Assembly: GCA_041656935.1 (NCBI GenBank)
Contig: JBBACQ010000001.1
Location: 93,459 to 157,458 of the forward strand
Source: Patescibacteria group bacterium
Lineage (GTDB): Bacteria > Patescibacteriota > Patescibacteriia > Patescibacteriales > UBA12465
DNA length: 64,000 nucleotides
Reading direction: 5' to 3'
The position numbers and the translations under genes were made by a program. Under the pieces are notes generated by a model. The model saw only the letters and a list, made by a program, of their open reading frames with translations. It was not told the DNA's origin and did not search any database. Numbering within the stretch: the stretch's first letter is position 1; every line of letters begins with the position of its first letter. Below, piece by piece: positions 3,111-61,325 of the stretch.

Positions 3111-3698
3111 TTAACGTTTACTCCATTGCGGAGCCTTACGCGCTTTCTTAAGCCCCGGTTTCTTTCTTTCTTTCTTACGAGGATCTCTGGTAATATAACC
3201 ACTAACTTTTAAAATTGCCCTAAATTCTGGATCATATTTTACTAAAGCTCGAGCTATTCCGTGTCTAATTGCATCTATCTGACCTAAAACACCACCACCT
3301 TTTACCAGTATTGAAAAATCGAAATCTTTTAATTTAGAAACTAACTTTAGGGGTTGTAGAGCCACACTAGAATTTTCTTCTCTTTTAAAATATTCTAAAG
3401 AGCTAAAACCATTAATAGTAAAATTACCTTGCCCTTTTTCATACATTCTAACTTGAGCTACGGCTGTTTTTCTTCGCCCCACAGCTTCAATATATTTTCC
3501 AGAAATAGTTTTATTTTTAGCAACCACAACATCAGCTACTTCTTTGGTTGAAGGTTTAACAACTTTACTTGTTTTTGCTTTTACTTCTTTTTCTAAAACA
3601 ACCTTATCTTTTTTAATAACTGGTTTTTTAACACTAGGCTTCTTATCAGTTGTCTTACTAATAGTTGTATTCTTCTTGTTTTTTTTGACTTCTGCCAT
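3111..3698 (-). CDS. rpsI: 30S ribosomal protein S9 with a Lys-rich N-terminal extension of about 65 aa
   Basis: Core GRRKTAVAQVRMY...GGGVLGQIDAIRHGIARAL...KKARKAPQWSKR is canonical S9. Preceded by rplM as in the L13-S9 operon. Confidence 0.95.
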   Translation of the reverse strand: MAEVKKNKKNTTISKTTDKKPSVKKPVIKKDKVVLEKEVKAKTSKVVKPSTKEVADVVVAKNKTISGKYIEAVGRRKTAVAQVRMYEKGQGNFTINGFSSLEYFKREENSSVALQPLKLVSKLKDFDFSILVKGGGVLGQIDAIRHGIARALVKYDPEFRAILKVSGYITRDPRKKERKKPGLKKARKAPQWSKR

Positions 3699-6015: not shown

Positions 6016-6621
6016 TTAAACTCGACGAGGTTTTTTAGGACGACAACCATTATGAGGAACTGCGGTTACGTCTTTAATACTAGAGATAATTAAACCATTA
6101 GCATTCAAAGATCTAATAGCAGATTCTCGACCAGTTCCTACCCCAGCTACAAAAACCTTAACCTCTTCTAAACCGAATTCTTCTTTAGCTTTTAAAACTG
6201 CAATTTTAGCAATAATTTGAGCAGCATACGGAGTAGCTTTTTTAGCTCCCTTAAAGCCAGCCATTCCAGCACTGGCCCAAGAAATAACATTACCGGTTTT
6301 ATCTGTTAAGGAAATAATAGTATTATTATAGGTAGCATTGATATAAGCATGGCCAGATTTTATTTTAACCAGCTCTTTTTTCTTTCTTTTTTTGATTAAT
6401 TTTTTCTTACTTCGAGCCTGTTTATTCTTTTCTAACTTTTGTTTAATTTCTTCTGGTAAATCCTCTATTTCGTTTTTATTTTCTTCTTTAGAAATATCAT
6501 CATCGGAAAACAAATCATCATCAACCGAATCATCTTCCAGCGATTGATCATTTTTATTATCAATATCTTTTATTTCTTCTAAAGATTCATCAATTTTTAT
6601 ATCTTTTTTTTCTTCGGTCAT
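6016..6621 (-). CDS. rpsK: 30S ribosomal protein S11 with an acidic N-terminal extension of about 75 aa
   Basis: Core [41 protein letters not shown]...[11 protein letters not shown]...[15 protein letters not shown] is S11. Confidence 0.95.
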
Positions 6622-18016: not shown

Positions 18017-18090
18017 CTTGCCAGCAATTCAAAATTTCAGGATATTCGCTATAAAATTTTTCATGCCACTTTTTCTAAAAAGTGCCATAA
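18017..18090 (+). repeat. single copy of the 77-nt 'arm + GCCAC hairpin' repeat unit
   Basis: CTTGCCAGCAATTCAAAATTTCAGGATATTCGCTATAAAATTTTTCATGCCACTTTTTCTAAAAAGTGCCATAA is near-identical to the units at 30807-30959. Confidence 0.8.
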
Positions 18091-21368: not shown

Positions 21369-23396
21369 TTAAAATTTAAAGTAAAAAATCATGACTCTAG
21401 AATTATCCACACTATAGACCAGATCAGCTTCTACTCTAACCTCTTCTACGATTTTAGTAAAGCCCCACCAATAATCATTAACCACAAAATAAACACCTTC
21501 AGCCCCAATCTCAGTCATTAATTCTAACATTAATTCCCTGTTAGGGTTCTCAATCATCTTTAAATAGTAGTCATATAATAATCCCCCGGTCTGAACGGAA
21601 TAATAAAGCCAAGGACCGTAATATCTTTTAAAACCATATTCCTTAATAGCGCTAGCCCCTACTTGCTGATTAGCTAAAACAACATAATTATCATTTTCCT
21701 TAACGCTCTCAATAAAGCGCACGGCTGTAAAGTCAGAAGATGAAACTGAAAAAGCACGAGAATTAAAATGATTATCTTTACGGGGATAATTTAAATATAG
21801 CGAGACCAAAAGTAAACCCGATAAAAATATAGAGATAATAATTTTGAAAAGTATTTTTTCTGATTTTATTTTTTTTATAGAACAAATAAAGATCTCATAA
21901 AAAACTGGGATTAAAAACAAAAAAGATAATATTAAAATTCTGCTGGCATAACTCCCTTTATCTATTTGACTTAAAAATGGAAAATCAATAAACAAACTTA
22001 AAAAATATGACAACATTAAAGCCAAAGAATTAAAGTAGAAAATTTTTAATTCCTTAAGGCGATATTTGAAAACAAAAATTGTAGCTAAAGAAAATAGGAT
22101 TAATAAGAACCAATTTTTATTGAGACCAAAAAAATAAATAAAATTTAAAATGGCATTCTCCTGCCCAACTAACCTAGGAACCCAATTAACCAAATTAATA
22201 TTAGGGAAAGAGAATCGGCCACCAGAAAATATTAAAAGTATTGGCAAAACTATAATTTGGCCTAAATAAGCTAAGTATTTTGAAGCATTTAGCAATTTAT
22301 AATTAAATTTTAAGTTCCACTTCCCTATTTTCAGCAAACTTCCATTATTTTTAATAATACCAATGAACAAAATAAAGGTAAAAATAATTGCCGGAACTCC
22401 AGCTAAGGGATGAATAAAAAATATAGCCAAAGCTAAAGAAAATAGAAAGAAAAAATTAGTTTTTTGGGCAACAAAGTTTTTATTAAAAGAAAATATTAAT
22501 AAAATAATTAAAAACAAAAAGGCTAAGTTTTGTGGAACAGTATAAGTAAAAATTGAAAATGGTAAAATTAGAAATAATAATAAGGGCCAAACAGTTTTGT
22601 GGAATCCTCTTTTTTTAAAATTAAAAATAAAGGTTAATGGGATTAATACGGCTGATAAAAATGGAACCAATAATTTATCTAAAGTCTCCAAAGAAAAAGG
22701 CCAAATCTTTAAAAAGAATAATTCTAAGGTATATTGGCCCAGATAATAAATAGTTTTGGGCTCTACAACACCAAATTTTAAAATGTCAGCCAAAACTCGT
22801 TGATGAAGTAATTGATCATAACCAAAGGCAATTTTATAAATAAAAAATGAAACAGAAAAAAATAAGAAATATAACATAAACACAAACAAATATGACCACC
22901 TGCTTTTAAAATAGAAATTTATAAATATGGTTACTATTAAAAGCCAAAGAAAAAACCAGAAATAATTGGGTAAGAATTGCCAAGGAGAAGCAATAGCCGA
23001 GAAACTGCCGGATTTGAAGAAGATTTGAAACAAAAGAAAGAATAGAGATAGAGTTATCACGGGCAAAATAATTTTTAGAAATACAGAAATTCGCAAGGAT
23101 TCGGACAGCGCTGGGGTTCCCTTCCCCTCCCGCGTATAGTCGCTACGCGACATGCGGTCGGCCGGGAATGATAAGGACGGGGAGGGCGAAGCTTGTTGAT
23201 TACCCCTATAAATGCTAAAATAAATAAAGCTATAAGTTAATAATAACGATAAAAATAGAGTAATAATAACCACTAAATCGTTAAATTTATAAAAATAATA
23301 AAAAATAGAGCCGATATTTATAATCAGCGACAAAAATAAAAGGAAAAATAAAAGAAAATTTTTCTTAAAAAGATTTAAAAAAGTATCTAAACTCAT
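21369..23396 (-). CDS. large polytopic membrane protein with C-terminal soluble domain (possible GT-C-like glycan-assembly protein)
   Basis: More than 12 hydrophobic segments, then a soluble tail of about 130 aa. The track start at 23459 overlaps the divergent GT4 gene; I prefer the ATG at 23396 (MSLDTFLNLF...). Contains an in-frame GC-rich insert. Confidence 0.6.
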   Translation of the reverse strand: MSLDTFLNLFKKNFLLFFLLFLSLIINIGSIFYYFYKFNDLVVIITLFLSLLLTYSFIYFSIYRGNQQASPSPSLSFPADRMSRSDYTREGKGTPALSESLRISVFLKIILPVITLSLFFLLFQIFFKSGSFSAIASPWQFLPNYFWFFLWLLIVTIFINFYFKSRWSYLFVFMLYFLFFSVSFFIYKIAFGYDQLLHQRVLADILKFGVVEPKTIYYLGQYTLELFFLKIWPFSLETLDKLLVPFLSAVLIPLTFIFNFKKRGFHKTVWPLLLFLILPFSIFTYTVPQNLAFLFLIILLIFSFNKNFVAQKTNFFFLFSLALAIFFIHPLAGVPAIIFTFILFIGIIKNNGSLLKIGKWNLKFNYKLLNASKYLAYLGQIIVLPILLIFSGGRFSFPNINLVNWVPRLVGQENAILNFIYFFGLNKNWFLLILFSLATIFVFKYRLKELKIFYFNSLALMLSYFLSLFIDFPFLSQIDKGSYASRILILSFLFLIPVFYEIFICSIKKIKSEKILFKIIISIFLSGLLLVSLYLNYPRKDNHFNSRAFSVSSSDFTAVRFIESVKENDNYVVLANQQVGASAIKEYGFKRYYGPWLYYSVQTGGLLYDYYLKMIENPNRELMLELMTEIGAEGVYFVVNDYWWGFTKIVEEVRVEADLVYSVDNSRVMIFYFKF
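23091..23196 (-). repeat. GC-rich palindromic element inserted in-frame in the membrane-protein gene
   Basis: Imperfect terminal inverted repeats CTTCCCCTCCCG (23121-32) and CGGGGAGGGCGAAG (23178-91); inner hairpin CGCGTA-7 nt-TACGCG. Shares 22-nt and 18-nt blocks with 47258-47279 and 47355-47372. Confidence 0.75.
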
Positions 23397-30647: not shown

Positions 30648-30806
30648 AATGGTTTGTTTTAATAATAATTAGTTATTTTATTATACTATAATAAAGTTTT
30701 GGAGTAAAGAATAACCTTTTTGTGCTATTTTTTTAGGAAAAATACCCACTTGACCATCTCTGGCGAAAAAAATTAGCAAACTAAAGTTTTTTTTAAAAAT
30801 AATAAT

Positions 30807-30959
30807 TTTTTCATGCCACTTTTTTAGAAAAAGTGGCCCAAAAATCGCCAGCAATTCAAAATTTCAGGACATTCGCTATAAAGTTTTTCATGCCACTTTT
30901 TTAGAAAAAGTGGCCCAAAAATCGCCAGCAATTCAAAATTTCAGGACATTCGCTATAAA
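30807..30959 (+). repeat. tandem duplication, 2 x 77 nt (arm + GCCAC hairpin)
   Basis: 71 nt starting at CATGCCAC (30812 and 30889) are identical by my alignment. Each unit has the hairpin GCCACTTTTT-TAG-AAAAAGTGGC (30815-30837 and 30892-30914). Confidence 0.9.
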
Positions 30960-31062
30960 AGCTAGTAAAATTTAGAACTCGGATGAGCTTCGCTCATCCT
31001 CAAACAGCTAAATTTTACACGCTTTTTACGCTTATGTCTAATCTGAAATTTTTCAAAGCTGG
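30925..31062. repeat. extended imperfect palindrome A (about 138 nt), candidate MITE or structured RNA
   Basis: Outer arms CCAGCAATTCAAAATTTCAGGACATTCGC / ACGCTTATGTCTAATCTGAAATTTTTCAAAGCTGG; inner stem 30965-30975/31008-31018 (11 bp, all Watson-Crick); apical hairpin GGATGAG-CTTCG-CTCATCC. Confidence 0.7.
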
Positions 31063-31090
31063 CAAGTAAAAAAAATTAATTTCTTGTTTT

Positions 31091-31225
31091 CTTGCGAACA
31101 TTAAAAAATTTTGGGGAAATTGCGAGTGTAGAAACCTTGCAAAATTTGGTTGTTTGAGGCGTAGCCGAGTTCTAAATTTTGCTAGGTTTCATAACGAGCA
31201 ATCCAAAATTTTTTAGTTCGCTAAG
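31091..31225. repeat. extended imperfect palindrome B (about 135 nt), inverted homologue of A
   Basis: Outer arms 31091-31114/31203-31225; inner stem 31131-31147/31174-31190 (17 bp, 1 mismatch). The reverse complement aligns to A through AAAATTTAGAACTCGG...CCTCAAACA.C.AAATTTT. Confidence 0.7.
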
Positions 31226-31344
31226 TTTTTTTGGACACTTTTTTTGTTAAAAAAAGTGTCTTAATAAATAAGTAAGTATACAAAAAACTTTAGTTCGCTA
31301 TTTTTTGGATGCTTTTTTTATTAAAAAAGTGTCTTAATAAATAA
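31214..31344 (+). repeat. diverged tandem repeat, again with 77-nt period, each unit carrying a hairpin variant
   Basis: TAGTTCGCTA at 31214 and 31291. Hairpins GACACTTTTTTT..AAAAAAAGTGTC (31234-31260) and GATGCTTTTTTT..AAAAAAGTGTC (31308-31333); both are followed by TTAATAAATAA. Confidence 0.75.
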
Positions 31345-32413: not shown

Positions 32414-33457
32414 ATGACTATCCTAGAAATAAAAACTAAATATAATGAGCTAGAGGCTAAATTATCTGACCCCGAAATAATATCCAATCATGAAAAAATA
32501 AGCCAAATCGCTAAAGAACACTCGGGATTAAAAAAATCTTATGATTTAATATTGGAAATAGAAAAAATAGAAAAAAATATTATTGATAACCAAGAATTAA
32601 TTGACAACGACCCCGCCTCAGAATTAGGAAAAATCGCCGAAGAAGAATTAAAAGAATTGAAAGAAAAAAAAGAAAAATTAGAGCAAGAATTACATGCTGA
32701 ATTAAATCCCGCTGACCCCAATGATAAAAGAAGCGTCATTGTTGAAATTAGAGCTGGAGCCGGAGGAGATGAAGGCGCCTTATTCACGGCTGAATTATTC
32801 AGAATGTATTTGCGTTTTGCTGAGAAGATGAATTGGAAAACTGAAATATTAAGCTCTAGTGAAATTGGAATTGGTGGCTACAAGGAAATAATATTTTCCA
32901 TCGAAGGGAATAATGTTTACGGTTATTTAAAATATGAAGCCGGAACTCATCGAGTTCAAAGAGTCCCGGAAACTGAAAAACAAGGACGAGTTCACACCTC
33001 TACTTCTACTGTAATGGTTTTTCCAGAAGCCGAAGAGGTAGATGTTAAAATAGAGCCAAGTGATATTAGAATTGATACCTTCTGCTCTTCTGGCCCTGGC
33101 GGACAAAGCGTTAACACTACTTATTCAGCTATTCGTATTACTCACCTTTCCACCGGACTGGTAGTTAGTTGCCAAGATCAAAAGTCGCAACATCAAAACA
33201 AAGAAAAAGCTATGCAAATTTTACGCTCTCGTTTATTAGCTAAAATTGAGGAAGAAAAATCAGCCAAAGAATCACAAGAAAGAAAAGAACAAGTTGGTAA
33301 AGGTGATCGAAGCGATAAAATTCGTACTTATAATTTCCCCCAAAATCGAATCACTGATCATCGAGCCAATAAATCTTGGCACAATATTGATGAAATAATG
33401 AATGGAAATATTGAAGAAATGATAATAGAAATAAAAAATGAAAAGAATAAAAATTAA
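32414..33457 (+). CDS. prfA: peptide chain release factor 1
   Basis: RVQRVPETEKQGRVHTS (PxT motif) and SGPGGQSVNTT (GGQ). Confidence 0.9.
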   Translation: MTILEIKTKYNELEAKLSDPEIISNHEKISQIAKEHSGLKKSYDLILEIEKIEKNIIDNQELIDNDPASELGKIAEEELKELKEKKEKLEQELHAELNPADPNDKRSVIVEIRAGAGGDEGALFTAELFRMYLRFAEKMNWKTEILSSSEIGIGGYKEIIFSIEGNNVYGYLKYEAGTHRVQRVPETEKQGRVHTSTSTVMVFPEAEEVDVKIEPSDIRIDTFCSSGPGGQSVNTTYSAIRITHLSTGLVVSCQDQKSQHQNKEKAMQILRSRLLAKIEEEKSAKESQERKEQVGKGDRSDKIRTYNFPQNRITDHRANKSWHNIDEIMNGNIEEMIIEIKNEKNKN

Positions 33458-47009: not shown

Positions 47010-47083
47010 ACCTCCGGCGAGACATTGCAAAACAATGACGCCCTCTGCGCACCTCCGGCGAGATATTGCAAAGCAATGACGCC
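47010..47083. repeat. GC-rich tandem direct repeat, 41-nt period, 2 units
   Basis: ACCTCCGGCGAGACATTGCAAAACAATGACGCC (47010-42) versus ACCTCCGGCGAGATATTGCAAAGCAATGACGCC (47051-83); 2 mismatches. Confidence 0.85.
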
Positions 47084-47094
47084 CCCCCTACGTC

Positions 47095-47262
47095 ATTCCC
47101 GCGAAAGCGGGAATCCAGGGTTAATCCGAAAAACGAAAAAATACTATTTAAAAATAATTAACTCAATATAAATATTATTATTAAAATTACTATCCAGTTG
47201 GTAAATCAAATCTACAAAAATTTATCAAACATTTTAATAATAGGGATTAACCCTGGATTCCC
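47095..47262. repeat. GAAA-loop hairpin plus perfect 19-bp inverted repeat bracketing an AT-rich spacer
   Basis: ATTCCCGC-GAAA-GCGGGAAT (47095-47114); GGGAATCCAGGGTTAATCC (47109-27) versus GGATTAACCCTGGATTCCC (47244-62). Confidence 0.85.
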
Positions 47263-47372
47263 TTCCCCTCCCGCGTATAAAAATTAACAAACTATTATTG
47301 TGATCTTCTTTGTTTTAATTAATTAAACAAGATCTTATGTAATCAAAATTTTACGCGGTCGGCCGGGAATGA
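47258..47372 (-). repeat. split copy of the 23.1-kb GC-rich element
   Basis: TTCCCTTCCCCTCCCGCGTATA (47258-79) and GCGGTCGGCCGGGAATGA (47355-72) are identical to 23117-38 and 23154-71. Here they are separated by about 75 nt of AT-rich sequence containing its own hairpin. Confidence 0.8.
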
Positions 47373-48614
47373 AGCGGGAATAGTAAATCTTCTTAAAACG
47401 GCTAACTCTGGAATTATTTTGGTAGCTAAAATTTCTAAAATAATCTCCTGGCCACCACCTCCACCATGGGCTTCATTTATCTTTTGTTTAGTTTTAAGAT
47501 CTAACATCTCTTTTAAACCTAATTTTATTATATCATAATTTGGCAAAATTATCTCTACCCGATCTCCAGCTTTAATAGTATTATGAACCTTAATTATTAA
47601 TCTATTTCGATATTTATTACCCTCTTTTTTAGACTGATTTCGAATAACCTGACCACAAAACTCCCAATTTGGAATAAAATGAGAGTTTTCGATATTCTGT
47701 TCCCCCTTTTTACCTAACAAAAAACCAGTAGTGTAACCACGATGAGTTATCTTATTAAATAACTCTTTATACAAAAAATTTATTTTTTTAGGGTTTTCTA
47801 AGGCCTGTTTATAGATACCAACAACATTGGCTAAATAATAAACACTTTTAGCTCGCCCCTCAATTTTAAAACTAGTTATCCCCGCTTTTATCAATTCGGG
47901 TATATTTTTTATTAAACATAAATCTTTTGAATTTAATAAATAAGAACCGTGCTCCTCCTTAACCAGCTCCAATTCTTCGTTCTTGCCCTTGGCTTTGATA
48001 AAAACATCATACTCCCAACGACAAGGTTGGACACAATCGCCTAAATTAGCGCTTCGTTGAATAAAATCTTTAGACAAAAAACAACGCCCCGAATAACTCA
48101 TACACATAGCTCCATGAACAAAATATTCCAATTCCATTTTGGGACATTTTCTATGTATTTCCCCTATCTCTTTCAAGGTCGTTTCCCGCCCTAAAATTAT
48201 CCTTGTAATTCCCTGACTTTGCCAAAACTTAACAGCTTCGTAATTAGTGCAATTAGCCTGAGTTGATAAATGTAAATTAATTTTAGGACAATATTTTCGA
48301 ATTAAATTCAAAATACCCGGATCAGAAAAAATTAAACCATCGGGCTGAAGTTTATTTATTAATTTTAAATATTCAGGTATATTTTCGATATGCTTATTAT
48401 GAGCAAAAATATTTACCGTCACATAAACCTTTTTCTTATTTTCGTGCGCATAATCTATGGCTTCTTTTAAAGATTTAAGAGAAAAATTATTTATTCTAAC
48501 CCTTAAAGAAAAATCAGGAATACCTAAATAAACCGCATCGGCCCCATGAGCTAAAGCGGTTTTCATTTTAATTAAATCTCCAGCTGGAGCTATTAATTCT
48601 ATTTTTTTATTCAT
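47343..48614 (-). CDS. peptidase U32 family protein
   Basis: IELIAPAGDL...GADAVYLG...; E-x-F-x-HGAMC-x-SYSGRC pattern (EYFVHGAMCMSYSGRCF). The last 13 or so codons lie in the GC-rich repeat. Confidence 0.85.
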   Translation of the reverse strand: MNKKIELIAPAGDLIKMKTALAHGADAVYLGIPDFSLRVRINNFSLKSLKEAIDYAHENKKKVYVTVNIFAHNKHIENIPEYLKLINKLQPDGLIFSDPGILNLIRKYCPKINLHLSTQANCTNYEAVKFWQSQGITRIILGRETTLKEIGEIHRKCPKMELEYFVHGAMCMSYSGRCFLSKDFIQRSANLGDCVQPCRWEYDVFIKAKGKNEELELVKEEHGSYLLNSKDLCLIKNIPELIKAGITSFKIEGRAKSVYYLANVVGIYKQALENPKKINFLYKELFNKITHRGYTTGFLLGKKGEQNIENSHFIPNWEFCGQVIRNQSKKEGNKYRNRLIIKVHNTIKAGDRVEIILPNYDIIKLGLKEMLDLKTKQKINEAHGGGGGQEIILEILATKIIPELAVLRRFTIPASFPADRVKF

Positions 48615-59769: not shown

Positions 59770-59939
59770 AAATTTATCTAAATAAAACAAATTAGACCAA
59801 CGGTCTATTTATTTAGATTATAATTAAAAAATAAAAATAAATCAATAGTTTTTAGATTAACCATAAACTATGGATAAAAAGTGAATTAATAGTGGAAAAC
59901 AAACTTGATTTAAAAAAGCAGTTAAGATATTATATAAAC

Positions 59940-61325
59940 ATGTCAGAAAAAAATATAAACAACTTAGAGAAACTTCCTCCACAAAACATTGAGGCCGAAC
60001 AGTCGTTATTGGGCTGTTTATTATTGGATAAAGAGGCAATTTTCAAAATAATTGACATTATCCAAGCCGAAGATTTCTATCATAATAATCATAAATTCAT
60101 CTTTGAATCGATGCTTGATTTATTTAATAATCAAGAACCCATAGATATAGTAACCTTATCAAACCGGCTAGAGGAAAAAAAGATGATTCAAAACGTTGGT
60201 GGACGAACTTATTTAGCTCAATTATCGAACACCGTGGCAACCTCAGCCAATACTACTTATTATGCCAACTTAATTCAAAAAAAGGCTACTCTTAGAAGAT
60301 TGCAAGTTTCCGCTAGCGAAATAATGGACCTAAGCTTTGAAGAAGAAAGAGAAATTGATGATGTTTTAGACCAAGCTGAGAAAAAGATATTTGGCGTATC
60401 CAGAAAATATTTAAAAAATTCCTTTTTAGGTATCGATAGCTTATTAACCGAAGCCTTCGAAAGAATAGATGAACTGCATAAAAGAAGCGGAAATTTAAGA
60501 GGGCTTTCAACTGGGTTTTACGATTTAGACAATTTATTAGCTGGTTTACAAAAATCAGATTTAGTAATATTGGCCGCTCGGCCTAGTGTTGGTAAAACAG
60601 CTTTAGCCATGGATATAGCTCGCCAAGCAGCTATAAAAAACAAGGCAGGAGTAGGAATTTTCTCTTTAGAAATGAGCAAGGAACAATTAGTAGATAGAAT
60701 GCTCTGTGCTCAAGCTAATGTTAATTTATGGAAAATGAGAACTGGAAATTTGTCTGATAAAGATGAGGACAGCGATTTTTCAAAAATTGCCGATGCGATG
60801 GGACTATTATCAGAAGCTCCTATTTATATTGATGACTCCCCTAACATCTCAGTTATGGAAATTAGAGCTAAATCAAGAAGACTACAATCAGAAAAAGGAT
60901 TAGGTTTAGTAGTGGTAGATTATTTACAATTAATGGAAGGCCGAGGAAAATACAGTGATAATTGAGTTCAAGAAATATCCGAAATAAGTCGCGGTCTAAA
61001 AGGTATCGCCCGTGAACTGAATATCCCCGTTTTAGCCCTAGCCCAATTATCAAGAGCCGCCGAACAGCAAAGCGGACCAGCCATCCCTAAACTGTCTCAT
61101 CTCAGAGACTCCGGTTCTATTGAACAAGATGCTGATGTAGTAATGTTTATATACCGTAAGGCTGCCGATCGAGCCTATAATATCCAAGATCTCCCTATGG
61201 ACGAGAGATATAAAGCTGAAATCCATATCGCTAAACACCGTAATGGACCTACCGGAAAGATTGATTTGTTCTTTTCTGAAGAAACTGCTAGTTTCAAAAA
61301 TATCAGCAAAACTGGAGACAATTAA
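59940..61325 (+). pseudogene. dnaB: replicative DNA helicase DnaB, single frame interrupted by one in-frame TGA (60963-60965)
   Basis: PPQNIEAEQSLLGCLLLD..., Walker A ARPSVGKTALAMD, VVVDYLQLM, then TGA, then VQEISEISRGLKGIAREL...LAQLSR...LRDSGSIEQDAD...KHRNGPTG. Track ORFs 59892..60965 and 61143..61325 share the frame. The likely true start is ATG 59940. Confidence 0.85.

Follow-up and report, generated by a model that had tools for sequence, protein, structure and literature searches.

A CGTC-type hairpin repeat carried in frame by a membrane-protein gene of a Patescibacteria bacterium

Repetitive extragenic palindromes (REPs) tagged by CGTC are small hairpins that predominate in Alphaproteobacteria. 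An unpaired CGTC head (often TGTC or CCTC) precedes an 8-9 bp stem that opens with A-T pairs, a loop of 4-5 nt and a CCA tail (PMC3733652). They have been reported in five phyla, namely Proteobacteria, Chlorobi, Bacteroidetes, Spirochaetes and Thermotogae, and no dedicated transposase is known for them (PMC3733652). CGTC-1 is the same repeat as Neisseria dRS3 and as RPE-6 of R. conorii (RPE, Rickettsia palindromic element), and CGTC-4 is RPE-4 (Di Nocera, De Gregorio and Rocco 2013, BMC Genomics 14:522, PMC3733652). Intragenic CGTC-1 units of R. conorii encode the peptides SFPRKRES, VIPAKAGI, CHSRESGNP, DSRFRGND and WIPAFTGMT, and an intragenic CGTC unit of S. wittichii encodes MDPSLRWGD (supplement, PMC3733652). 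In-frame insertion of REPs or of MITEs (miniature transposable elements with inverted repeats) is documented outside Rickettsia in several phyla (PMC3733652, PMC5896051). Many REPs have been argued to act as RNA elements, and many of those near the 5' ends of open reading frames (ORFs) may be non-coding (PMC3733652). Here we describe an element of this kind in a 64-kb stretch of the genome of a Patescibacteria group bacterium (contig JBBACQ010000001.1; the whole stretch of 64,000 nt is called the window below), where it lies inside a gene for a polytopic membrane protein. It is very probably a non-autonomous hairpin repeat, a variant of the CGTC-tagged REP superfamily, inserted in frame in a tolerant loop of the protein. 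Its kind, a CGTC-type REP related to RPE-6, and its in-frame behaviour are known; the host phylum, Patescibacteria (the candidate phyla radiation, CPR), and the variant shared with GC-rich Alphaproteobacteria are new.

The G+C content of positions 23091-23196 is 63.2%, while the window mean is 31.3% (standard deviation 7.1% for 106-nt windows; z=4.48), and only 6 of the 63,895 windows of this length are as GC-rich, all of them at this locus. The minus-strand ORF 21369..23396 stays open throughout the tract, from its ATG over 675 aa, and reads ...NQQASPSPSLSFPADRMSRSDYTREGKGTPALSESLR... The original prediction, made from the letters of the window, had proposed such a tract with the frame of the ORF kept, and this is what we find. 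The inner hairpin that it described, CGCGTA-7 nt-TACGCG, is present at 23132-23150, and the 22-nt and 18-nt blocks that it noted have exact second occurrences, at 47258-79 (blastn E=5e-7) and at 47355-72 (E=1e-4). It also proposed terminal inverted repeats (TIRs), CTTCCCCTCCCG at 23121-32 and CGGGGAGGGCGAAG at 23178-91. Both are there and are imperfectly complementary, but they are not the ends that define the family. Comparison with 28 other copies sets the limits of the element to 23111-23173, which leaves out the arm at 23178-91; that arm is missing in the second copy near 47 kb and in all alphaproteobacterial copies. The host gene and the parts of the tract are listed here in the direction of the gene.

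21369..23396, minus strand: host gene, 675-aa polytopic membrane protein with a C-terminal globular domain
23174..23196, minus strand: C-rich 5' extension of the GC tract (..GCTTCGCCCTCCCCGTCCT), containing the second of the proposed TIR arms
23111..23173, minus strand: core repeat element, delimited by the invariant arms in an alignment with 26 alphaproteobacterial and 2 CPR copies
23173-23170, minus strand: head of the core, TATC
23169-23164, minus strand: ATTCCC of the core
23163-23122, minus strand: 42-nt interior of the core, GGCCGACC, then the hairpin GCATGTCGCGTAGCGACTATACGC, then GGGAGGGGAA
23121-23116, minus strand: GGGAAC of the core
23115-23111, minus strand: tail of the core, CCCAG
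23091..23110, minus strand: 3' extension of the GC tract (CGCTGTCCGAATCCTTGCGA), delimited by setting orthologue DNA side by side

The core encodes ..LSFPADRMSRSDYTREGKGTP.. and the element corresponds to codons ~69-102 of the host gene. Below, L-numbers (L001-L008, L035, L036) denote fetched loci of relatives and P-numbers (P0001-P0053, P0124) homologous proteins. The C-rich 5' extension is also found in L002 and L003, as TCCTCCCCGTCCT, and the 47 kb and alphaproteobacterial copies are without it. L002 and L003 have AT-richer sequence homologous to the 3' extension, and L001 and L004 a homologous decayed remnant.

Family identity rests on copies in another phylum. On the coding strand the copies of the window, L002 and L007 have common arms, TCATTCCCGGCCGA... 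and ...GGGAGGGGAA. A scan for both arms, demanding 24 exact bases in one genome per species of 185,579 species, gave 26 loci. All of these belong to Pseudomonadota, and those with an assigned class to Alphaproteobacteria. The hosts are Rhizomicrobium electricum DSM 21034 (three loci), Micropepsaceae, Hyphomicrobiales, Microvirga and unclassified metagenome-assembled genomes (MAGs), with 58-69% G+C; up to 3 copies per genome were found, which is a lower bound as only exact matches were taken. In the alignment of 29 copies the head TGTC, ATTCCCGGCCGA and GGGAGGGGAA(GGGAA)yCCAGG are invariant or nearly so, and the interior varies in sequence and in length (7-30 nt). The window copy matches both arms of the alphaproteobacterial variant, TCATTCCCGGCCGA ... 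GGGAGGGGAA(GGGAA)yCCAGG, exactly and has the same predicted fold; the nearest alphaproteobacterial copies are 81-84% identical to it over 62 nt. An nhmmer profile made from the 26 alphaproteobacterial copies alone recovers 23114-23171 of the window with E=2.8e-9, the L002 copy with E=1.4e-10, a copy in a second loop of the L007 protein with 1e-5 and the two halves of the 47 kb copy with E=4.7e-4 and 1.8e-3, and it finds nothing further in the 194 kb of CPR DNA scanned in all. The loose regular expression ATTCC..GGGAAT has a chance background of ~7 per 194 kb, and its matches were counted only with the correct head and tail. The two-arm pattern had 0 matches in the viral contigs scanned, and the complex element had none in a plasmid database. 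A single metagenome match to the CPR-specific right arm TACGCGGGAGGGGAAGGGAA was set aside as chance; it lies on an unrelated contig of 53% G+C and has no left arm.

Head and tail place the element among the CGTC repeats, for which we used the text definition in PMC3733652. The head is TGTC in L002, in L003 and in 25/26 alphaproteobacterial copies (CGTC in the other), and TATC of the window is one substitution away. The tail is CCCAG in the window and L002, CCCAGG or CCAGG in Alphaproteobacteria, and CCAGG in the 47 kb copies. Simpler units of the same clade are CGTC-1 or RPE-6 both by sequence, with 97-100% matches in Neisseria/Azospirillum, and by peptide. L005 11020-39 and L007 1657-76 are TGTC-ATTCCCGCGAAAGCGGGAAT-CCA and read LSFPRKRES, and residues 424-431 of R. 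conorii RC0382 are SFPRKRES, the same peptide. Orthologues of the host protein carry LSFPRKRES (P0008, P0009), SRFRGDDK (P0009) and DPSLRWDDK (P0007). The Rickettsia resemblance that the original prediction saw in behaviour thus goes beyond behaviour, to a common superfamily and a shared SFPRKRES peptide; the in-frame insertion, which it called notable in an unrelated genome, is in itself not new, given the cases of PMC3733652 and PMC5896051.

Further copies were sought, and one lies in the window at 47244-47374, where it overlaps the 3' end of a U32 peptidase gene in the same frame. The features of this locus are as follows.

47343..48614, minus strand: U32 peptidase gene
47343..47381, minus strand: last 12 codons and stop of the U32 gene (..VLRR, then FTIPASFPADRVKF and the stop), repeat-encoded
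47244..47374, minus strand: second copy, in which ~75 nt of AT-rich sequence (47280-47354) enlarge the loop of the inner hairpin
47373-47351, minus strand: arm of the second copy, TTC-ATTCCC-GGCCGACC-GCGTAA
47277-47244, minus strand: arm of the second copy, TACGC-GGGAGGGGAA-GGGAAT-CCAGGGTTAATCC
47091..47127, plus strand: canonical CGTC-1 REP unit, with CGTC at 47091-94, stem ATTCCCGC at 47095-102, loop GAAA at 47103-06, stem GCGGGAAT at 47107-14 and tail CCA at 47115-17
47081-47051 and 47040-47010, minus strand: two direct copies of another CGTC-headed module, CGTCATTGyTTTGCAATrTCTCGCCGGAGGT

Thirty-eight U32 orthologues end 2-3 residues past VLRR, and the last 12 codons and the stop of the U32 gene in the window are therefore repeat-derived; this tail uses the same SFPADR frame as the membrane protein. 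The spacer between U32 and RuvA measures 4 nt in L036, 121 nt of AT-rich sequence in L035 and 350 nt, filled with repeats, in the window, which on this sequence comparison is a filled site set against empty sites in relatives. Its order is a stub ATTCCCGC, the complex element (inner loop enlarged by 75 nt, AT-rich), an AT-rich stretch of 117 nt, the simple CGTC-1 unit in inverted orientation and the two copies of the other module. With its extension CCAGGGTTAATCC (47115-27) the stem of the simple unit pairs with 47244-47262 as a perfect inverted repeat of 19 nt, and the simple and complex units, 130 nt apart, thereby make a tail-to-tail pair of about 280 bp. Dispersal in the 64 kb thus amounts to two complex copies and one simple unit. 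The simple unit (47091-47117), single in the window with 0 expected by chance, does have an 8-bp stem at 47095-47114 (ATTCCCGC/GCGGGAAT). It has matches of up to 100% over 30 nt in Neisseria gonorrhoeae, Azospirillum, sphingomonad, Cupriavidus and Legionella replicons, with at least 40 places per record in N. gonorrhoeae. One such unit, 97% identical, lies at 32501-32530 of the plasmid/chromid record NZ_CP076395.1 (Sphingopyxis indica), under annotated ileS, a further case of a housekeeping gene with an intragenic copy.

Several side observations belong to this locus. The two copies of the CGTC-headed module (47010-47040, 47051-47081) are separated by GCGCAGAGGG, and no further copy of the module occurs in any fetched locus. 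The AT-rich stretch 47280-47354 is itself an imperfect palindrome (GATCTTGTTTAATT/AATTAAAACAAAGAAGATC) that sits exactly in the loop of the inner hairpin, and in L003 the interior (1431-1532) is likewise longer, its stem being extended by AT-rich sequence and accompanied by a GCGAAGC mini-hairpin; it seems that these repeats tend to expand, or to take up further insertions, in their hairpin loops. The U32 orthologue P0124 has a different C-terminal extension (...VLRRRPIMCHPRRVIAKR), and here too a repeat may have supplied the tail, independently, at this gene end.

The insertion is polymorphic among orthologues of the membrane protein. The host gene has 129 homologues, from Patescibacteria genomes and metagenomes, and its order between a GT4 glycosyltransferase and a DEAD-box helicase is kept across relatives. 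In P0010 to P0053 the loop after the invariant NQQ is short and AT-rich, and the segment is not conserved in these distant orthologues. An exhaustive phmmer search with the 34-aa element peptide, a short query of low power for diverged copies, had 0 matches at E<=0.001 among 1.84 billion representative proteins, and a conserved protein segment is thereby ruled out. In L002 the same codon bears the same element, and L003 has the same ends around a longer and different interior. L001 and L004 retain only what appears to be a decayed right half (AGAGAAGGGGCGGACTCCGGCATTAG compared with GGGAGGGGAAGGGAATCCCAGAATTAG), L005 has another GC-rich remnant in the first loop, and L007 and L008 have several other modules there, two related ones in L007 standing in opposite orientation. 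A second loop (~residues 345-375) holds further modules in L005, L007, L008 and P0039, that of L007 including a member of the same family. The absence from distant orthologues and these further copies support the RPE-like reading proposed at the outset, and on sequence comparison two loops of the membrane protein are repeat hotspots.

Individual relatives add detail. The membrane gene at L007 1220-3439 (P0009) and at L008 3150-5381 (P0007) has up to at least 3 modules in its first loop, in both orientations, and more in the second. P0039 (Falkowbacteria) has GRGDKKETSLCSS in tandem, x3, together with ACHLDRESCGATCERGDL-type peptides, which suggests other palindromic repeat families. L005 8824-8870 is an intergenic complex unit between two GT4 genes (TGTC-ACTCCCGCGAAGGCGCGAGCC-ACGTAGCGGAGCTATACGTG-GGGAAT), and its inner hairpin matches that of the window with compensating changes from CGCG/CGCG to CACG/CGTG.

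Folded independently, 28/29 copies give the same three-tier predicted fold: TTCCC/GGGAA form the outer stem, two pairs (CC/GG) make a clamp, and the inner hairpin is variable, its stem occurring in 20 different sequences. The forward strand folds better than its complement (means -24.7 and -19.3 kcal/mol) in 26/26 alphaproteobacterial and 3/3 CPR copies (p=8e-6 for the 26 alphaproteobacterial copies tested), which points to a structure that acts on one strand, as RNA or single-stranded DNA. In both window copies the better-folding strand is the mRNA sense. The core is moreover 95% identical between the window and L002, compared with 82-86% for the flanks (~9 differences expected in 63 nt, 3 seen), and the synonymous difference is 0.26 compared with 0.46-0.48 outside, suggesting, in a small sample, constraint at the nucleotide level or homogenisation between copies. 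These features, and the argument that many REPs are RNA elements (PMC3733652), would fit an element whose retention reflects its own function and not just tolerance of a selfish insertion: a strand-specific structure in the mRNA or in single-stranded DNA that might pause translation after two helices, stabilise the transcript or bind a protein. We consider this unlikely. The sample is tiny, and the pattern would look alike under gene conversion between copies or a constraint imposed by the mobilising enzyme; L001 and L004 lack the left half with the hairpin but have kept the gene, and the L007 loop bears its two modules in opposite orientation. In Rfam searches of the whole window at the gathering threshold, and of both loci and ten alphaproteobacterial loci at permissive E, only tRNAs and chance-level matches appeared, and no family matches the element.

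The protein that carries the insert matched no Pfam family. Its AlphaFold model (pLDDT 71.5) has a multi-helix membrane domain and a C-terminal globular domain, and the best Foldseek matches are AftA, STT3 and AglB, at E>=9e-3 and TM 0.3-0.4; the weak resemblance of the modelled fold to GT-C glycosyltransferases is only a lead. The insert lies between the hydrophobic stretches 35-63 and 100-131, and residues 66-101 are modelled with a pLDDT of 32-36 between confident helices at 40-67 and 98-128, so that the hydrophilic segment between hydrophobic helices expected from the original prediction is found, in a part modelled as disordered. Lys/Arg-rich loops in orthologues free of the insert suggest a cytoplasmic position for the loop.

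The codons upstream of the insert are under purifying selection. For codons 1-68 the ratio of nonsynonymous to synonymous substitution rates (dN/dS) is 0.13-0.18 in four comparisons that include insertion-bearing lineages, it is 0.07-0.13 for the rest of the gene and ~0.63 for the codons of the element, and 19 aligned orthologues all have Y33, Y34, F57, F60 and Q68. In-frame insertion into a host gene under purifying selection is the behaviour of RPEs. Selection on the codons ahead of the element would make sense only with translation running on through it, and the element is probably read as part of the protein; the predicted tryptic peptides across it include MSRSDYTR and EGKGTPALSESLR. It is very unlikely that the insertion instead broke the gene, leaving the N-terminal 68 codons as a dead remnant upstream of a functional protein that starts further down. 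Such a reading would agree with the NCBI call WC928_00645 (P0005), a protein of 502 aa that begins at residue 174/675, and with the notion that many REPs near the 5' ends of ORFs may be non-coding (PMC3733652). It is at odds with the selection on codons 1-68 and with a frame that stays open through the element in the window, L002 and L003 despite their differing interiors, and the start at residue 174 would leave out, besides the insert, five predicted transmembrane helices kept in all orthologues. Given the selection on the N-terminal helices, the 502-aa call is probably wrong, and the repeat is probably the cause. The practical consequence would be that automatic annotation cut the gene to 502 of 675 residues.

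Loop length does vary among orthologues, but that the segment is merely a native, fast-evolving loop of low complexity, GC-rich by chance, is highly improbable in view of the 22-nt and 18-nt blocks that return unchanged in another gene context at a distance of 24 kb, the match of 24 specified bases to 26 loci in another phylum, the profile score and the GC deviation. An assembly chimera or contamination by GC-rich alphaproteobacterial DNA, to which the nearest relatives of the tract belong, has next to no probability, as the tract of 63-106 nt is in frame with orthologous gene on both sides, diverges in step with its host gene and keeps its codon position across assemblies made independently from different samples (the identical P0001 from Logan, L002 and L003), and is therefore no assembly artefact. 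An intein or intron was also dropped, for the short length and the lack of signatures.

The explanation that we favour, an in-frame insertion of a CGTC-superfamily repeat, would run as follows. The 4-nt loop of the basic hairpin would have been replaced by a 42-nt interior, giving a variant that reads, in order, TGTC, ATTCCC, GGCCGACC-hairpin-GGGAGGGGAA, GGGAAT and CCA, and that is dispersed with identical arms in Alphaproteobacteria of the Rhizomicrobium/Micropepsaceae type. A copy would have entered the DNA for the loop between transmembrane helices 2 and 3 in the ancestor of a small Patescibacteria clade, presumably mobilised in trans by an enzyme encoded outside the window. It would have survived by keeping the frame, bringing no in-frame stop and adding ~20-35 hydrophilic, disordered residues to a loop that tolerates insertion. 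Transcribed and presumably translated, the insert would yield a nearly neutral peptide, and the nucleotide sequence of its core would have been kept better than the surrounding gene. A second copy would have landed at the end of the U32 gene and replaced its last residues and stop codon. In this account the family, the polymorphism of the insertion, its frame, its place in a loop and the selection upstream of it are results, and what is deduced is the translation, the near-neutral peptide and the mobilisation in trans. As 3/6 frames of the element are open, a stop-free, in-frame outcome of a single event is not improbable. Forward-orientation units inside ORFs all read ...LSFP..., in ~4-5 independent events including the U32 tail, too few for a firm claim of a frame preference.

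Several results weigh against this explanation. The outer stem ATTCCC/GGGAAT has 6 bp (5 bp in the window, with GGGAAC) and not 8-9, and the interior is 42 nt with a hairpin of its own in place of a loop of 4-5 nt; the element is therefore filed as a variant of the CGTC superfamily and not as strict CGTC-1. The predicted fold of the tract, as DNA or as RNA, is no more stable than that of dinucleotide shuffles (z=-0.2 and +0.2), and the evidence for structure is therefore comparative, not thermodynamic. The 64-kb window contains no transposase, no RAYT and no IS110-type gene, nor is there a transposase in the fetched loci of relatives, and mobilisation is a proposal. At the membrane-gene copy neither a target-site duplication nor a clean empty-site junction is definable, because the loop is hypervariable. 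Its inverted repeat is an imperfect 12/14 match with one arm outside the family-defined element, and the 47 kb pair has its 19-nt inverted repeat and no target-site duplication relative to L036 and L035, so neither has the TIR and target-site duplication of a MITE. The NCBI pipeline places the start of the gene at residue 174, and translation of the insert is deduced from the gene sequence. Finally, there are two copies of the element in 64 kb, and about 130 kb of relatives' DNA scanned outside the membrane-protein gene yielded L005 8824-8870 alone.

How the repeat came to this clade is a separate question. Identical arms, 81-84% identity over 62 nt, a tract of 63% G+C in a 31% genome and an exact two-arm signature found only in Pseudomonadota among the 185,579 species representatives allow a horizontal arrival from Rhizomicrobium/Micropepsaceae-like Alphaproteobacteria, or from a shared vector, and we put this forward as a tentative possibility, on balance doubtful. 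The near-identity of the arms means either that such repeats move between phyla or that a very conserved enzyme constrains them. If transfer took place, the repeats would record, as molecular traces, that an ultra-small episymbiont and its host were physically associated, and could be used to predict hosts of uncultured CPR bacteria. The literature searched has no report of REP- or RPE-type repeats in Patescibacteria, nor of the element peptides. CPR genomes are very small and streamlined, and in the clade studied several CGTC-type modules have repeatedly become part of two loops in one conserved membrane protein and have extended the end of a peptidase. The repeat-driven protein variation of Rickettsia, Coxiella and others therefore also operates in these genomes.

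The remainder of the window contains housekeeping genes only (ribosomal proteins, Mur ligases, MreB, aminoacyl-tRNA synthetases, glycosyltransferases and the like). The plus-strand dnaB (59892-61325) is one reading frame broken by a single in-frame TGA at 60963-60965 (...GKYSDN, stop, VQEISEISRGLK...), beyond which the conserved C-terminal half, including LRDSGSIEQDAD and AKHRNGPTG, resumes in the same frame; a frameshift was accordingly dropped, and the TGA may be a sequencing error or a recent nonsense mutation, or it may be read through or recoded. Other genes of the window do end with TGA, for example that of the U32 peptidase. At 30804-30957 a 77-nt unit is duplicated in tandem (99% identical), long imperfect inverted repeats extend across 30768-31306, and an AT-rich hairpin family (GCCACTTTTTTAGAAAAAGTGGC) occurs in intergenic spacers, also at 18056, 24589 and 31303; all these look like duplicated terminator-type hairpins and have no relation to the GC-rich repeats. 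Long N-terminal extensions precede the Pfam domains, which begin at residues 74 and 90, in ribosomal proteins S9 and S11 (3111-3698 and 6016-6621, both minus strand).

Compared with described systems, the element is related to some by sequence and to others by behaviour. QMITE2 of Coxiella burnetii (Wachter et al. 2018, BMC Genomics 19:247, PMC5896051) is, by its description, likewise a small palindrome common to a distant host and Alphaproteobacteria, with a conserved stem and a divergent palindromic tip, and it too produces in-frame insertions and C-terminal extensions (enhC +33 residues, with a new stop); it differs in having a full-length form with TIRs (PMC5896051). The Rickettsia palindromic elements, the subject of work by Ogata and colleagues (refs 13, 14 and 49 in PMC3733652), are likewise palindromic, in frame and tolerated as a hydrophilic segment, and the RPE-4 and RPE-6 families are CGTC REPs. 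RPE-1, the classic in-frame family, differs as a longer palindromic insertion of unrelated sequence. The window host has no relationship to Rickettsia, copy number here appears low, and expression of the decorated protein has been shown for Rickettsia, whereas here it is deduced from the gene sequence. With CGTC-1 the element shares the C/TGTC head, a stem that opens with A-T (ATTCCC...GGGAAT) and a CCA-type tail. The units are paired in opposite orientation and clustered in intergenic mosaics, with no transposase alongside, mostly just downstream of ORFs and sometimes within them, and the U32-RuvA spacer is alike the mosaic repeat clusters of Neisseria. The simple unit 47091-47117 agrees with CGTC-1 in every defining feature, and intragenic CPR units encode R. 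conorii peptides (SFPRKRES, DSRFRGND-like). The window element itself departs from CGTC-1 in its shorter outer stem, in the 42-nt interior that replaces the 4-nt loop and in its Patescibacteria host, outside the five phyla of PMC3733652. The closest likeness is to the expanded-loop variant of Rhizomicrobium electricum, Micropepsaceae, Hyphomicrobiales and other MAGs. That variant lives in genomes of high G+C, apparently mostly between genes, while the window copy lies inside a gene of a 31% G+C genome and has a degenerate head (TATC) and closing base (GGGAAC); the two have identical arms (16 + 21 nt), the same class of interior length (26-30 nt), a tip of the GCGC-GTA/GAA-GCGC type, the same three-tier predicted fold and the same strand polarity.

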